A stretch of 14,271 nt of DNA, taken from UHGV virus genome UHGV-0141067, one strand, 5' to 3'. The position numbers were made by a program, and so were the translations under genes. Below the pieces are notes generated by a model. It saw only the letters and a program-made list of their open reading frames with translations, made no database searches and was not told the DNA's origin. This document shows, piece after piece, positions 10,631 through 14,220 of this stretch (the stretch's first letter is position 1; each line of letters opens with the position of its first letter). Origin of the DNA: a virus.

Positions 10631-11272
10631 TCAGGAGAATTTCATCATCATCTGCACTGCTACGCCGATTATCTTGCAGTTGCCGTCGATTGGGATCAAC
10701 GGATAGGCAGGGTTAAGCCCTTTCAGGTATTTGTTACCGCCATCAATGATTAGCTTCTTGAACGTGGCTTCATTAGCATCTGTCAGCTTCGCAACTACCA
10801 GGCTTCCATTAACGGCTTCCTTTCCAGTGTCGAACAGAACCAGCATACCCTCAGGAACGCTAAGGCCGGTAGGAGCTGTCATTGAGTCGCCCTGAACCCT
10901 GAGCCAGAAGGCGTCACCGACAACGTGACAATCTGATTCATACCACTCATCCACTGCCTGAGGGTTGTACGGCTCTACGGCCTCACTCCATGCACCTGCG
11001 CTAACCCAGCTAATCAACGGAAACTTTTCCCCTGGCTTGTATTGTCCCTGATAGTTGTCGCCAAAAAGCAGTTCTGCCGGAGCGACGCCCAAAGCTTTAG
11101 CTATTACCTCTGCGTCATCAACACTAACGCTTCTGGTTCCTGATTCATAGTTGCCGATCCGAGATTGTGAAGCCCAGCCGCAAAGCTCCGCCAGAGCCTT
11201 CTGTGAAAGCCCTTTATCTTCCCGTAATCGCTTGATACGCGCGGCGATAGTTTCTGTTCTGTTCATGCGCAT
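10631..11272 (-). CDS. cI: CI-type prophage repressor (HTH N-terminal domain plus LexA/S24-like autocleaving C-terminal domain)
   Basis: 213-aa ORF; C-terminal half (KFPLISWVSAGAW...GDSM...VVAKLTDANEATFKKLIIDGGNKYLKGLNPAYPLIPIDGNCKIIGV) closely resembles the phage 434 repressor C-terminal domain as I recall it; N-terminus is a distinct HTH. Start could be the ATG at 11272 or 11266. Confidence 0.9.
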   Translation of the reverse strand: MRMNRTETIAARIKRLREDKGLSQKALAELCGWASQSRIGNYESGTRSVSVDDAEVIAKALGVAPAELLFGDNYQGQYKPGEKFPLISWVSAGAWSEAVEPYNPQAVDEWYESDCHVVGDAFWLRVQGDSMTAPTGLSVPEGMLVLFDTGKEAVNGSLVVAKLTDANEATFKKLIIDGGNKYLKGLNPAYPLIPIDGNCKIIGVAVQMMMKFS

Positions 11273-11278
11273 TTTATA

Positions 11279-11336
11279 TCACATTCCGTGGTTTAAGGCT
11301 TTACACGATTTGTGTTGACTATCAATCACAATATGT
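11279..11336. promoter_or_regulatory. oR operator: three CAC-N5-GTG sites (pRM/pR control region)
   Basis: cacattccgtg (11279-11289), cacgatttgtg (11303-11313), cacaatatgtg (11326-11336); same motif and spacing as oL. Confidence 0.6.
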
Positions 11337-11343
11337 GTTTAAT
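11314..11343 (+). promoter_or_regulatory. pR promoter (-35 TTGACT; -10 around TTTAAAT)
   Basis: TTGACT at 11314-11319 with a T/A-rich -10 candidate 17-19 bp downstream; overlaps operator sites; about 30 nt upstream of cro. Confidence 0.55.
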
Positions 11344-11376
11344 AAAGACTGAGTGAACTAGCTCTTAAGGAAACCT

Positions 11377-11592
11377 ATGAACAACATTGCCAACGAACGG
11401 AAAAAGCTTGGCATCACTCAATCTGCGTTAGCAGGCGCGTGTGGCTGGAACCAGTCCCGCTTAGCTAACTACGAGTCAGGTATCCGGACTCCAGATTTAG
11501 AGTCGTGCCGTCGCCTGGTAAAGGCGCTGAATAAATTGGGGAGCAAGACAACGCTAGATGGCTTGTTCCCGCCGGAACACAAAGCCGCTTAA
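11377..11592 (+). CDS. cro: Cro-like HTH repressor (XRE family)
   Basis: 71-aa ORF with ATG start and AAGGA Shine-Dalgarno; HTH pattern LGITQSALAGACGWNQSRLANYESG; first gene rightward from pR, divergent from cI. Confidence 0.85.
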   Translation: MNNIANERKKLGITQSALAGACGWNQSRLANYESGIRTPDLESCRRLVKALNKLGSKTTLDGLFPPEHKAA

Positions 11593-11600
11593 GACATTCC

Positions 11601-11632
11601 CGCTCTTACACATCCCAGCCCTGAAAAAGGGC
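11601..11632 (+). promoter_or_regulatory. nutR (boxA CGCTCTTACA + boxB GCCCTGAAAAAGGGC); tR1/cII-leader region follows
   Basis: Consensus boxA at 11601-11610 and boxB hairpin at 11618-11632; the sequence from here to the cII ATG appears essentially identical to the lambda nutR-tR1-cII leader as I recall it. Confidence 0.88.
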
Positions 11633-11711
11633 ATCAAATTAAACCACACCTATGGTGTATGCATTTATTTGCATACATTCAATCAATTGTTATCTAAGGA
11701 AATACTTACAT

Positions 11712-11990
11712 ATGCAACTTACAAGTACTCGCAAGAAAGCGAATGCAATTACAAGCAACATCCTGAATCGAATTGCTGTACGTGGTCAGCGAAAGGTTGC
11801 CGACGCGTTAGGGATTAATGAATCGCAAATTTCGCGATGGAAAGACAGCTTCATCCCAAAAATGGGAATGCTTCTGGCTGTTCTTGAATGGGGTGTTGAA
11901 GACGAGGAGTTGGCGGAACTGGCTAAGAAAGTAGCCAGAATGCTGACAAAAGAAAAAGCCCCGAAGAACGGCGAATTCTTCGAGGCCTGA
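11712..11990 (+). CDS. cII: CII transcriptional activator
   Basis: Start at the ATG at 11712 (lambda-like leader ...TAAGGAAATACTTACATATG); motif ESQISRWK...IPKMGMLLAVLEWGV matches lambda CII; the track's 11652 start would extend into nutR/tR1. Confidence 0.9.
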   Translation: MQLTSTRKKANAITSNILNRIAVRGQRKVADALGINESQISRWKDSFIPKMGMLLAVLEWGVEDEELAELAKKVARMLTKEKAPKNGEFFEA

Positions 11991-12014
11991 TGTAGAAAGA
12001 CTGGATCAATCCAC
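11950..12014 (-). ncRNA. oop: oop-like antisense RNA overlapping the cII 3' end
   Basis: On the minus strand: -10-like CATAAT (complement of 12022-12027), a 5' region resembling lambda oop (GAUUGAUCCAGU), and an intrinsic terminator (stem cgaagaa/ttcttcg, 11962-11982, plus U-tract) inside the cII 3' end. Confidence 0.55.
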
Positions 12015-12024
12015 AGGAGTAATT

Positions 12025-12669
12025 ATGACATACGAAAATGACAAATTCCAGGTTCTGAAGAGCATGAAGGTGCCAGATGATTTTAAATCAAATGGCTTTG
12101 TTTATGTGCTTTCTAATGAGTGCATGCCAGGAATTTATAAGATTGGGATGACTAAGCATTCACCAGAAGTTAGGGCTAAAGAAATTTCAGCCTCTACTGG
12201 CGTTCCTAAGCCATTTAAGGTGATAGCAGCCTTTCATTCAAATAATCCCGCATCAGATGAAAAACTCATTCATAAAGCCTTTGCAAAAGAGAGGCTTAGT
12301 GATAATCGAGAGTTTTTCAAGCTTGAAGATAATGAGCTTTCTGAATCTCTAAATGAAATAAGGGCGCTGGTTGGCCCTGAAAGAAATGGCGAGACGGCAG
12401 AATACGCAATTTACGACTCATTCATTTCTTTTCGCCATGAAAATGAGCTTGATCTTAATGAGGAGCTTATAGAGCAAGGTCTGGGTAGTGTAGTTGGTCA
12501 TCTTCCTGCGGTGAAAAATTTCCTTATTCGCGCCGGAATTGATTACGCGAAGCAACTGATAAGCAAATATAACTCATCGATAGTTATTAATACAGATGGC
12601 AGTGTGGTGATGGTTAAGTCTCTTGAAGCCCAATGCTTTGATGCGGAGGTTGGAAATGAGCCTGGCTGA
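12025..12669 (+). CDS. T5orf172 (GIY-YIG-like) domain protein; AT-rich insert between cII and O
   Basis: 214-aa ORF with ATG start after a CAGGAG Shine-Dalgarno; N-terminal GFVYVLSNECMPGIYKIGMTKHSPEVRAKEISASTGVPKPFKV...NREFF fits the T5orf172 domain pattern as I recall it; C-terminal ~100 aa unassigned. Confidence 0.8.
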   Translation: MTYENDKFQVLKSMKVPDDFKSNGFVYVLSNECMPGIYKIGMTKHSPEVRAKEISASTGVPKPFKVIAAFHSNNPASDEKLIHKAFAKERLSDNREFFKLEDNELSESLNEIRALVGPERNGETAEYAIYDSFISFRHENELDLNEELIEQGLGSVVGHLPAVKNFLIRAGIDYAKQLISKYNSSIVINTDGSVVMVKSLEAQCFDAEVGNEPG

Positions 12670-13498
12670 AGTATTTTACCTGTCGAAGAGTGAACCTGTT
12701 GAACAGGAGCGAAGAGTGGCTGATATCGATGATGGTTACACCAGATTCGCTAACGAGCTGCTGGAAGCTATCGCAAGTGCTGATTTAACCGCTCGCCAGT
12801 TGAAAGTTATGCTGGCCTACGTCCGGAAAACATATGGATTCAATAAGAAAACAGATCGAATAGCCGATGAGCAAATTGCTCAGTTAACAGGACTGTCAAG
12901 GCAGAATGTTAACAAGGCTAAAAAAGAACTGATTTCAATGAATTGCCTGTTTATGGATGGAAATCAAATCGGTGTAAACAGTGAGGTATCTGCGTGGCAA
13001 TTCAGCAAGTGTCTCCAAGTTAGCAACTTTGTCTCGAAGTTAGAGACAAAAAATGTCTCCAAATTAGAGACACTCAATGTCTCGAAGTTAGAGACACACA
13101 AAAGACATTCTTTAAAGACAAAAGAAAATATTAATAAACCCCCTATATCCCCCAAAAAAGTTTCTCAGAAGTTCGACCCGCTAGAAACAGAGTTGCCTGA
13201 TTGGTTATCAGCAGAAACATGGTTGTCGTGGGTTACCTATCGCAAGGAGATAGGTAAGTCGATCAAGTCTAAGCAAAGTGTCACTCAGGCTATCAACGTT
13301 CTAAGCAGAAGTCTGGAGAAGGGATATACACCTGAAGAAATTATAAACCAGAGCATCGCCAGTGGTTGGCAGGGGATTTTTGAACCCAAGACTCCAAAGG
13401 GGAAATCTCAACCGAGGCCGCAGCAGCGAGCTATGCAGGAAAACTTTGCCGCCAAAGATTACGGGCAAACTGAAATGCCTTCATGGGCGCAGGAGTGA
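12656..13498 (+). CDS. O: Replication initiator O (lambda O-like, with internal origin)
   Basis: Start at the ATG at 12656 (GGAGG Shine-Dalgarno); N-terminal ...QERRVADIDDGYTRFANELLEA...RQLKVMLAYVRKTYGFNK aligns with lambda O as I recall it; the iteron region translates as SKLETKNVSKLETLNVSKLET. Confidence 0.9.
   Translation: MSLAEVFYLSKSEPVEQERRVADIDDGYTRFANELLEAIASADLTARQLKVMLAYVRKTYGFNKKTDRIADEQIAQLTGLSRQNVNKAKKELISMNCLFMDGNQIGVNSEVSAWQFSKCLQVSNFVSKLETKNVSKLETLNVSKLETHKRHSLKTKENINKPPISPKKVSQKFDPLETELPDWLSAETWLSWVTYRKEIGKSIKSKQSVTQAINVLSRSLEKGYTPEEIINQSIASGWQGIFEPKTPKGKSQPRPQQRAMQENFAAKDYGQTEMPSWAQE
13010..13096. repeat. Replication origin iterons (four ~19-bp repeats TGTCTC-N7-GAGACA-like) inside O, followed by an A/T-rich tract
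   Basis: Iterons at about 13010-13027, 13030-13048, 13054-13072 and 13078-13096 with ~24-bp periodicity; AT-rich region 13097-13165; same architecture as lambda ori. Confidence 0.8.
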
Positions 13499-13500
13499 AT

Positions 13501-14220
13501 ATGAATACGACAAATGGTTACAATCTGGCACTGCAAAGGCAACTTGTAGACTCAAAAATCAATGACATTTCTGATCTGAAACAGAAACTTGAGTTTAGCA
13601 AAATTGGATCAGCATCAGATGGAATGTCAGTTACCAGCACAGTGGAAGAGTGCGAGAAACACGGTAAATATACTTCCTATGAGAAATATCTGACCATCTC
13701 AGGAAAAAGAATTACTTCAAGTAAATCTGAGTGCCCACAGTGCCTTGAGGAGAAAATTCGTAAGAAAGAGATTGAACGTGAGCAGGCAGAACAAAGAGCA
13801 AGACAATCAAAAATTGAATATTTGTTGAATTCTCTCAATATTCCAGAGAGGTTCAAAAATTGCACTCTTCAGAATTATGAGCCTGTTAACGATGATGCAA
13901 AGCGAGTTCTTAAGGTATGCCAGGCATATGCCAGTAAGTGGCCTGAACGCCTTCAGAAAGGTGGCGGACTGGTCATGTGTGGTAAGCCTGGAACTGGAAA
14001 GAACCACCTTGCACTGGCTATCGCTAGGCACGCCATTATCGAGCATCAAAGCTCTGTGATATTTACCACTGCGTTGAAAATTGCCAGAGAGTACAAATCA
14101 ACATGGTCTAAGGCCGCAACCAGAACTGAAGAAGAAGTCATTAGGCAATTTACGCATCCTGACTTGTTAATAATCGATGAGGTTGGCGTGCAGTTCGGCA
14201 GTGATGCTGAAAAGCTGTAA
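13501..14220 (+). CDS. DnaC-like AAA+ helicase loader (replication protein); C-terminus possibly truncated
   Basis: ATG at 13501 after AGGAGTG, overlapping the O stop; Walker A GKPGTGKNHLA and Walker B LLIIDEVG; the ORF ends only 14 aa after Walker B. Confidence 0.8.
   Translation: MNTTNGYNLALQRQLVDSKINDISDLKQKLEFSKIGSASDGMSVTSTVEECEKHGKYTSYEKYLTISGKRITSSKSECPQCLEEKIRKKEIEREQAEQRARQSKIEYLLNSLNIPERFKNCTLQNYEPVNDDAKRVLKVCQAYASKWPERLQKGGGLVMCGKPGTGKNHLALAIARHAIIEHQSSVIFTTALKIAREYKSTWSKAATRTEEEVIRQFTHPDLLIIDEVGVQFGSDAEKL

Follow-up and report, generated by a model that had tools for sequence, protein, structure and literature searches.

The window analysed here is a 14,271-nucleotide stretch of DNA from the virus genome UHGV-0141067, and the subject of this report is an open reading frame (ORF) at positions 12025 to 12669 that lies between cII and the replication initiator gene O. 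Window positions 11300–13600 are 100% identical to Escherichia phage CurroJimenez_Bas106 (PQ850599.1; Bas106 below), a P22-like Lederbergvirus of the BASEL collection (10.1101/2024.09.12.612763), in which the ORF is Bas106_0049 and is annotated as a 'hypothetical protein'. In E. coli prophages the RefSeq name of the same protein is 'GIY-YIG nuclease family protein'. The features of the locus are listed below, those of the ORF and its junctions first and the neighbouring genes after them; a DnaC-like helicase loader is also among the neighbours.

12025–12669, plus strand: 214-residue ORF with a T5orf172 nuclease domain and a family-specific C-terminal domain; ATG start, intact
12094–12360, plus strand: T5orf172/MUG113 (GIY-YIG superfamily) domain, residues 24–112, from Pfam
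12370–12666, plus strand: C-terminal domain, residues 116–214; acidic (isoelectric point 4.45), with a confident AlphaFold2 core
12031–12700, plus strand: presence/absence cassette of 670 bp replacing 42 bp (AATACAGCAAAAATACTCAACTTCGGCAGAGGTAACTTTGCC) of cassette-less alleles, from alignment
12000–12030, plus strand: conserved lambdoid boundary sequence (Sf6 'bsq5'), common to alleles with and without the cassette, with a Shine-Dalgarno (SD) sequence GGAG at 12016–12019 and ATGACA
12022–12050, minus strand: oop promoter Po, by homology with lambda in a minus-strand alignment of lambda, phage N7 and the window
11946–12014, minus strand: predicted oop-like antisense RNA, starting at about 12014 by homology with lambda and overlapping the 3' end of cII
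10631–11272, minus strand: cI-like repressor
11377–11592: cro
11712–11990, plus strand: cII (Phage_CII); the start annotated in the record is longer, at 11652
12656–13498, plus strand: replication initiator O (Phage_rep_O), with its ATG at 12656

Bas106_0049 begins 35 nt downstream of cII, and its stop codon ends at 12669, 14 nt into the O gene, confirming the overlap described in an earlier reading made from the sequence alone (the sequence-only reading). The SD sequence of O, GGAGG at 12645–12649, lies inside the ORF. In lambda, as that reading had also stated, O directly follows cII, the two being 32 nt apart. A scan with the sigma-70 consensus found no plus-strand promoter-like site upstream of the ORF, and no plus-strand terminator was found between the ORF and O; a CII-activated promoter for the ORF was considered and rejected, there being no CII box at the gene. 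Given the short gap after cII, the lack of a promoter-like site of its own or of a terminator before O, and the overlap with O, Bas106_0049 is likely to be co-transcribed from pR, in keeping with the earlier proposal. The ORF had also been described as AT-rich; with 40.5% GC (35% at third codon positions), compared with 46.6% for cII, 43.7% for O and 46.2% for the window, it is AT-shifted relative to its surroundings, albeit only moderately.

The N-terminal part of the protein is a GIY-YIG-type nuclease domain. Pfam matches both T5orf172 (PF10544; residues 24–112, E=1.4e-15, 58 bits against a cut-off of 20) and MUG113 (PF13455; residues 38–111, E=7e-16, 59 bits against a cut-off of 22.3), and both families belong to the GIY-YIG clan, so the T5orf172 assignment made from the sequence alone is well founded. 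A 25-sequence family alignment, reaching down to 33% identity, shows invariant residues at G24, Y27, Y38, K39, G41, R50, E53, H83, R95, E96, F97 and F98. The catalytic-type set GFVY27, Y38KIG, R50, H83 and RE96FF is thus complete, corresponding to the full GIY...YIG...R...E set in 25/25 sequences, with the catalytic roles of Y27, Y38, R50, H83 and E96 assigned by motif position and not by structural superposition; the sequence-only reading had named conservation of these residues as a check on the domain. The GIY-YIG alpha/beta fold is present, and the closest solved structures are those of SLX1 (11–14% identity). By its sequence, Bas106_0049 is probably an active DNA-cutting enzyme.

PADLOC defence models also match this domain (PDC-S57, E=4.5e-29; PD-Lambda-1, E=4e-12), with the matches spanning residues 21–113 only and, for PDC-S57, model positions 3–94 of 212, so that the PDC-S57 model is not matched over its full length. 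Comparison with an 84%-identical homologue gives ratios of nonsynonymous to synonymous substitution rates (dN/dS) of 0.088 for the whole protein, 0.094 for the nuclease domain and 0.040 for the C-terminal domain, at a dS of about 1. Both domains are therefore under strong purifying selection, which is strongest on the C-terminal domain, and all six E. coli copies examined are intact. We note that a different architecture surrounds the same nuclease domain in Vibrio phage K303 (L028:3495-4454) and about 70 near-identical records, where, in a protein of 319 residues, the T5orf172 domain is N-terminal and precedes a weak ParA/CbiA-like P-loop region; the K303-type phage also encodes a ParA-like partition protein.

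The C-terminal part, previously left unassigned, stays so: its ~100 residues (about 113–214) have no match in Pfam, the PDB or BFVD. The invariant residues of this half in the 25-sequence alignment are A128, G152 and G158. When 1.84 billion representative proteins were searched with a profile, the C-terminal domain turned up in 13 only, all with the same architecture or fragments of it; the domain is confined to the Bas106_0049 family and has never been recombined with other modules. One possible origin was tried and rejected: a DNA-binding domain borrowed from the initiator, in the style of the ICP1 nuclease Odn, is not supported by comparison with O (hhalign probability 1%) or with the DnaC-like loader (0.4%).

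The tails of a sister subfamily of ~230 residues (P0029, P0030, P0034, P0035, P0037 and P0040; for example L011:4001-4693) are acidic and end in phenylalanine. They read ...GIYGPEQPVEF, ...QSDDSDIPF and ...IPDFDDNPF, and two of them closely resemble the C-terminal tip of the E. coli single-stranded DNA-binding protein SSB, which is DFDDDIPF. This resemblance suggests that the sister-subfamily tails could dock on replication or repair proteins that bind the SSB tip. The Bas106 protein has no such tail. A C-terminal segment of O, 'GWQGIFEPKTPKG' (13298–13336; O residues 215–249), aligned weakly to the 'GIYGPxxP' motif of these tails (hhalign E=0.054, probability 1%); this alignment is probably due to chance, although it would be of interest if O and the tails bind one partner.

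Comparison with close relatives shows that the gene is carried on a cassette with exact boundaries. Phage N7 has a cII gene 99.1% and an O gene 98.5% identical to those of Bas106 and no ORF between them, and its homology to the window extends to 12030 and begins again at 12701; the boundaries are the same when three cassette-less E. coli prophages are aligned. Phage mEpX1 has O and the loader as in Bas106 and no cassette. The cassette is present in 19 of the 47 complete E. coli genomes that have this O allele, always with the same boundaries, and absent from the other 28. In 24 of the 26 cassette-less genomes listed (out of 28), O homology begins exactly at 12701, and in the other two at 12792; one of these two was examined and has an insertion of the insertion sequence (IS) element IS2 in O. 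A near-isogenic pair of prophages, one cassette-bearing and one cassette-less (L016 and L023, respectively), have identical repressor and Cro proteins, and their flanks are 99.3% identical over ~1.9 kb on each side of the 670-bp/42-bp difference. Because only 19 of the 47 genomes sharing this O carry the cassette, and N7 combines this cII and O with an empty junction, Bas106_0049 is an accessory gene and not a universal part of this replication module, which agrees with what the sequence-only reading had expected. That reading had also suggested that the gene is a moron. The accessory status, the atypical base composition and the absence from close relatives, N7 and the 28 cassette-less genomes included, are moron traits; the lack of a promoter and terminator of its own and the overlap with O are not, and the gene is not a moron of the classical kind.

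The 42 bp that the cassette replaces correspond to O codons 3–16 plus the oop −35 element, and they are identical in lambda, N7 and all four empty alleles aligned. The 73-bp empty junction is found at ≥95% identity in 134 phage records, among them those of lambda, 434 and Stx phages, and in 1344 of 5426 E. coli genomes. A single base on the left is linked to the cassette, position 12021 being A in 7/7 cassette-bearing and C in 4/4 empty alleles, and no cassette-linked single-nucleotide polymorphisms were found in O beyond 12701; this pattern does not separate homing from ordinary recombination. A transposon-like insertion was rejected, as there are no terminal inverted or direct repeats and no target-site duplication.

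Several other rearrangements were seen near the junction. IS elements (IS3 family, ISKpn26 and IS2) interrupt the loader or O in E. coli prophages (L017:4611-5824, L018:4724-5704 and L024:1181-2409), and the decaying prophages L017 and L018 still hold an intact nuclease gene. In the 202-residue metagenomic protein P0032 the last ~66 residues of the nuclease protein (97% identical) are fused in frame to O; a frameshift or an assembly error at the 14-nt overlap is the most likely source of this apparent fusion.

Placement of the cassette affects both the oop promoter and the start of O. The extended −10 element of oop is retained in Bas106 as TGTCATAAT on the minus strand (12030→12022, comprising CATAAT at 12027→12022 and TG at 12030→12029), and its complement, ATTATGACA, includes the start codon of the ORF. 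The lambda oop promoter has the form TTGAGT–17 nt–CATAAT with a TG extension; the −35 position (12050→12045) is inside the ORF and reads TGGAAT in Bas106 (3/6 consensus matches) versus TTGAGT in lambda and N7 (4/6). The overlap of the 5' end of the ORF with the oop promoter, anticipated from the sequence alone, is thus real, and oop levels, and hence control of cII, may be altered by the cassette. Po in Bas106 was not called by the sigma-70 consensus scan, and Rfam has no oop model and gave only sub-threshold chance matches, so that oop is placed by homology with lambda. A strong minus-strand terminator, a hairpin at 11988→11956 followed by a T-run, lies in the 3' end of cII as expected of oop, and oop RNA is annotated at the homologous junction in the phage 434 record.

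At the other end, the first 15 codons of O (12656–12700) and its SD sequence come from the cassette, giving an O N-terminus of MSLAEVFYLSKSEPV in Bas106 versus MTNTAKILNFGRGNFA in N7, and the insertion shifts O 628 bp farther from cII. From this layout we infer that translation of O has been made dependent on an SD sequence within the nuclease gene.

A search of 5.8 billion proteins recovered 52 relatives of Bas106_0049, from E. coli, Klebsiella, Pectobacterium, Cronobacter, Pantoea and Enterobacter, which fall into subfamilies of ~214 residues (54–99% identity) and ~230–238 residues (33–38%). In the phage collection no record other than Bas106 contains the full-length protein. At all 13 of the loci examined, in Enterobacterales and one Burkholderia phage, the relative is directly upstream of a replication initiator gene, which it often overlaps or from which it stands only 0–11 nt away; the left neighbour is cII or YdaT. 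Ten of these loci are those of Bas106, Klebsiella (L005), Pectobacterium (L007), Pantoea (L009) and Enterobacter (L011) together with L013, L029, L030, L031 and L032. The three more distant ones are in Proteus phage Brookers, where the C-terminal domain of gp48 is homologous (hhalign probability 95%), Salmonella phage S107, where that of orf64 scores 66%, and Burkholderia phage KL4, where gp09 has the nuclease domain only but occupies the same slot. The synteny comparison proposed in the sequence-only reading thus shows one slot shared by all 13 loci.

The initiators themselves are of unrelated families. Some are of the Phage_rep_O type with lambda-P, DnaC-like or DnaB-like partners, one is of the HTH_36/DnaD_N type, and two have no Pfam match. 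Nuclease genes of 60–64% identity, for example, stand beside unrelated initiators and those of 69% beside initiators of 35% identity, and the gene is paired with at least five cI/cro/cII immunity sets. As it is far better conserved than the adjacent initiator and is associated with this number of immunity sets, the gene is mobile relative to both flanks. The motif cAGGAGTAATTATG is found upstream of the gene in nearly all loci, even where the remaining upstream sequence is unrelated; it is the lambdoid boundary sequence (Sf6 'bsq5') and comprises the first ribosome-binding site (RBS) of the replication module and the complement of the oop −10. An unrelated 53-residue ORF of the HK97 gp53 type occupies the cII–O slot in Sf6 (gene 42, L003:2945-3106), mEp213 (mEp213_055, L004:3226-3387) and HK97; in general, this is a slot in which small genes land and become translationally coupled to O. 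Among the loci examined the nuclease gene was never in a defence island and always at the cII–initiator junction.

The remaining observations concern the neighbouring genes. In Sf6, mEp213 and E. coli prophages the cII homologues begin at the position corresponding to 11712, giving a protein of 92 residues, and the ATG at 11652 used in the record gives 112. A perfect CII box of the pRE type, TTGCTTGTAATTGC, is present at 11745–11758 on the minus strand, and a second at 1414–1427 on the same strand. Within O, three tandem 24-bp units at 13030–13101 (consensus TGTCTCGAAGTTAGAGACACACAA) encode a repeated VSKLET motif and are probably the ori iterons, as in lambda.

Taken together, these data lead us to favour, tentatively and with less than even confidence, the reading that Bas106_0049 is a free-standing, horizontally mobile nuclease of the homing type, or of the marker-exclusion or competition type, which sits at the boundary of the immunity and replication modules, is expressed early from pR and has its translation coupled to that of O. 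What the data show directly is the domain and its fold, the invariant residues of the active site, the exact boundaries of the insertion-deletion, the mobility relative to neighbouring genes and the purifying selection. The empty junction has the character of a conserved essential-gene target of the kind used by homing endonuclease genes (HEGs), because the 42 bp are identical in all empty alleles aligned, the 73-bp junction is widespread and the cassette allele does not have it. Presence or absence at a fixed site among near-identical genomes, and a history incongruent with that of the flanking genes, are both features by which HEGs are recognised and both are found here. The sharp bounds, the replacement of a piece of a conserved essential gene, the mobility relative to two flanks, the AT-shift and the combination of a catalytic N-terminal domain with a second domain suggest, by analogy, a homing element.

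By its layout, the nuclease gene has taken over the conserved RBS and ATGACA start used by O in cassette-less phages, with the cassette providing O with a new SD sequence and N-terminus within the 3' end of the nuclease gene. Expression would occur early in lytic growth or upon induction, from pR and coupled to translation of O. Under the homing or competition reading, the protein would act as do free-standing homing or marker-exclusion nucleases such as T4 Seg or the T5orf172 enzymes of ICP1. Where a related phage or prophage without the cassette shares the cell, its DNA would be cut in or close to the very conserved cII–O junction, a sequence that the cassette-bearing allele does not have. 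The cut would lead either to conversion of the rival allele through recombination in the flanks or to damage of the competitor.

Several observations weigh against such a role. The C-terminal domain is acidic, and no cysteine pairs, zinc finger, helix-turn-helix or other recognisable DNA-binding motif were found in it, in contrast to the zinc fingers of most T5orf172 HEGs. It is also the most conserved part of the protein (omega 0.04), even beside unrelated initiators, and does not show the diversification expected of a target-recognition domain. The cassette is rare relative to the empty sites available (19 versus 1344 genomes), and its E. coli copies all go with one O allele. Finally, fidelity to a slot whose flanks are unrelated (left, cII or YdaT; right, O or initiators that are DnaD-like or unassigned) is hard to reconcile with sequence-specific homing, except where the short conserved boundary motif is itself the target.

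These weak points, namely the C-terminal domain, the rarity of the cassette and the slot with unrelated flanks, favour a replication-linked, partner-directed nuclease, which fits the acidic, invariant C-terminal domain and the slot fidelity almost as well as homing does and which we regard as possible, albeit on the unlikely side. Here the C-terminal domain would dock on a conserved host or phage replication or repair protein, or on a DNA structure, and not on a DNA sequence; the enzyme would act on forks, origins or branched intermediates, either processing the phage's own intermediates or attacking the replicating DNA of competitors or satellites, and placement before the initiator would match timing and stoichiometry. 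Consistent with this are the position directly upstream of the initiator at all 13 loci, whatever the initiator family, the purifying selection on both domains with its maximum on the C-terminal one, and the restriction of that domain to this family. The SSB-tip-like tails of the sister subfamily (...SDDSDIPF and ...DFDDNPF) point the same way, as do the closest structures, those of SLX1, a structure-specific GIY-YIG nuclease that works via a partner-binding C-terminal domain, and the precedent of Odn, a T5orf172 nuclease aimed at a replication origin (PMC8263062). However, the gene is dispensable, since N7, mEpX1 and 28 of the 47 E. coli genomes have the same O and loader without it; the C-terminal domain resembles neither O nor the DnaC-like loader (hhalign probability ≤1%); the KL4 homologue has the same slot and no C-terminal domain; the Bas106 protein itself has no SSB-like tail; and conservation of the slot could be simple inheritance in a mosaic gene order.

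Less probable still is a hitherto unrecognised, slot-specific accessory of the lambdoid replication module, in which the C-terminal domain (together with the SSB-tip-like tail in the sister subfamily) would recruit the nuclease to the host's replication or repair machinery or to initiator-bound origins, there to cut the replicating DNA of rival lambdoid phages, prophages or satellites or to process the phage's own intermediates. If this were true, the gene would encode a replication-coupled weapon or processing factor and not a sequence-homing element.

A prophage defence or superinfection-exclusion nuclease that protects the lysogen, similar to PD-lambda-1/SNIPE or PDC-S57, seems improbable. 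The gene is accessory, AT-shifted and prophage-borne, both PADLOC models match its nuclease domain, and the GIY-YIG nuclease domain of SNIPE cleaves incoming phage DNA (PMC13190303). Those matches, however, are limited to residues 21–113 and to 94 N-terminal positions of the 212 in PDC-S57; there is no DUF4041, and 214 residues are too few for a membrane anchor, DUF4041 and a nuclease; and the location is never a defence island. Moreover, as the gene lies within the repressor-controlled pR operon, with no promoter-like site or CII box of its own, it should be silent in a lysogen. The defence function suggested in the sequence-only reading is accordingly weak, with nothing indicating expression in a lysogen, and for the anti-defence function raised alongside it there is no evidence.

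T4 EndoII is also a GIY-YIG enzyme, and an early host-takeover nuclease of that kind, which would nick or degrade host DNA during lytic growth for host shut-off or nucleotides and might bias infection towards lysis, is similarly improbable: the early-operon position and intact active site would suit it, and Bas106, the only Escherichia phage record in the collection with the gene, forms clear plaques, but a lambdoid phage has no DNA modification to distinguish itself from the host, 19 E. coli prophages carry an intact cassette, which is therefore compatible with lysogeny, and the plaque correlation is that of a single phage, which its authors explain by a missing attB. Bas106 is reported to form clear plaques and 'did not show temperate behavior', with no obvious defect in lysogeny genes, unlike the sister Lederbergvirus isolates Huey, Dewey and Louie (10.1101/2024.09.12.612763).

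The nuclease domain, the RefSeq name and T5orf172 homing genes were already known. The literature searched contained no paper combining GIY-YIG, lambdoid and cII, and we did not find in it a description of the two-domain family with its unique C-terminal domain, of the strict placement before unrelated initiators in lambdoid or P22-like phages, or of how exactly the cassette is built into the cII/oop/O junction. The sequence-only reading, for its part, had missed that the first ~14 codons of O and the oop −35 are replaced along with the rest, that the slot upstream of unrelated initiators is strictly kept, and that a homing-type role at recombination boundaries is documented for T5orf172 nuclease genes (PMC10448857).

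Work on T5orf172 nucleases to date has concerned either homing genes in virulent phages (ICP1, T5-like) or defence in bacteria (SNIPE), and here one is found at a module boundary of lambdoid temperate phages. The boundary between the lambdoid immunity and replication modules is among the best-known recombination joints in phage genomics. About a quarter of complete E. coli genomes contain the empty junction; cutting of it by the nuclease, if it occurs, could be an active source of lambdoid mosaicism at this boundary or a weapon among prophages that share a host. Should the homing reading prove wrong, the coupling to unrelated initiators and the unique, conserved C-terminal domain point to an undescribed replication-linked function. 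The system is directly testable, as Bas106 is distributed with the BASEL collection and isogenic alleles that differ by the cassette exist in nature; the cassette rewires the oop promoter and the O translation start, and Bas106 has a clear-plaque phenotype.

Several known systems resemble Bas106_0049 to different degrees. The HK97 gp53-type ORF shares with it the cII–O slot, the start at the boundary sequence and ATGACA, and the 14-nt overlap with O, but has 53 residues, no nuclease domain and an unrelated sequence; Bas106_0049 as a relative or remnant of such an ORF was rejected (hhalign probability 0.6%). The likeness to SLX1 is one of resemblance only, with 11–14% identity, no RING domain and no known SLX4-type partner. 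The nuclease domains of SNIPE and PDC-S57 are recognisably related to that of Bas106_0049. The PD-lambda-1 model belongs to SNIPE, which consists of a membrane anchor, DUF4041 and a C-terminal GIY-YIG nuclease that is required for defence (PMC13190303); in Bas106_0049 the nuclease is instead N-terminal, there is no DUF4041 match in its 214 residues, and the gene is in a phage early operon and not in a defence island.

In Odn (ICP1 gp88), the T5orf172 domain is a proven nuclease that depends on a conserved glutamate (PMC8263062). Odn and Bas106_0049 are both T5orf172 proteins tied to a replication module, but Odn is targeted by a RepA_N-like DNA-binding domain, whereas the second domain of Bas106_0049 is unrelated to the adjacent O. 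More generally, the T5orf172 genes of ICP1, T5-like and other phages behave as HEGs located at boundaries of genetic exchange beside essential genes, including those of the replisome, and 87% of T5orf172 HEGs carry CapR, DUF723 or DUF4397 zinc fingers (Barth et al. 2023, PMC10448857). Bas106_0049 is like these in its nuclease domain, in being free-standing beside an essential gene at an exchange boundary, and in its presence or absence between relatives. It differs in that they are mostly from virulent phages, with the nuclease usually at one end together with zinc-finger domains, whereas Bas106_0049 is in a temperate lambdoid phage, has an acidic, cysteine-poor second domain of no known fold, and keeps its slot across unrelated flanks. 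The parallels to T4 Seg and I-TevI extend to the organisation of both protein and locus: an N-terminal GIY-YIG catalytic domain is followed by a C-terminal domain of ~100 residues, the gene is intergenic, free-standing and by its position probably co-transcribed with its neighbours, and the allele that bears it is without the sequence of the empty allele.

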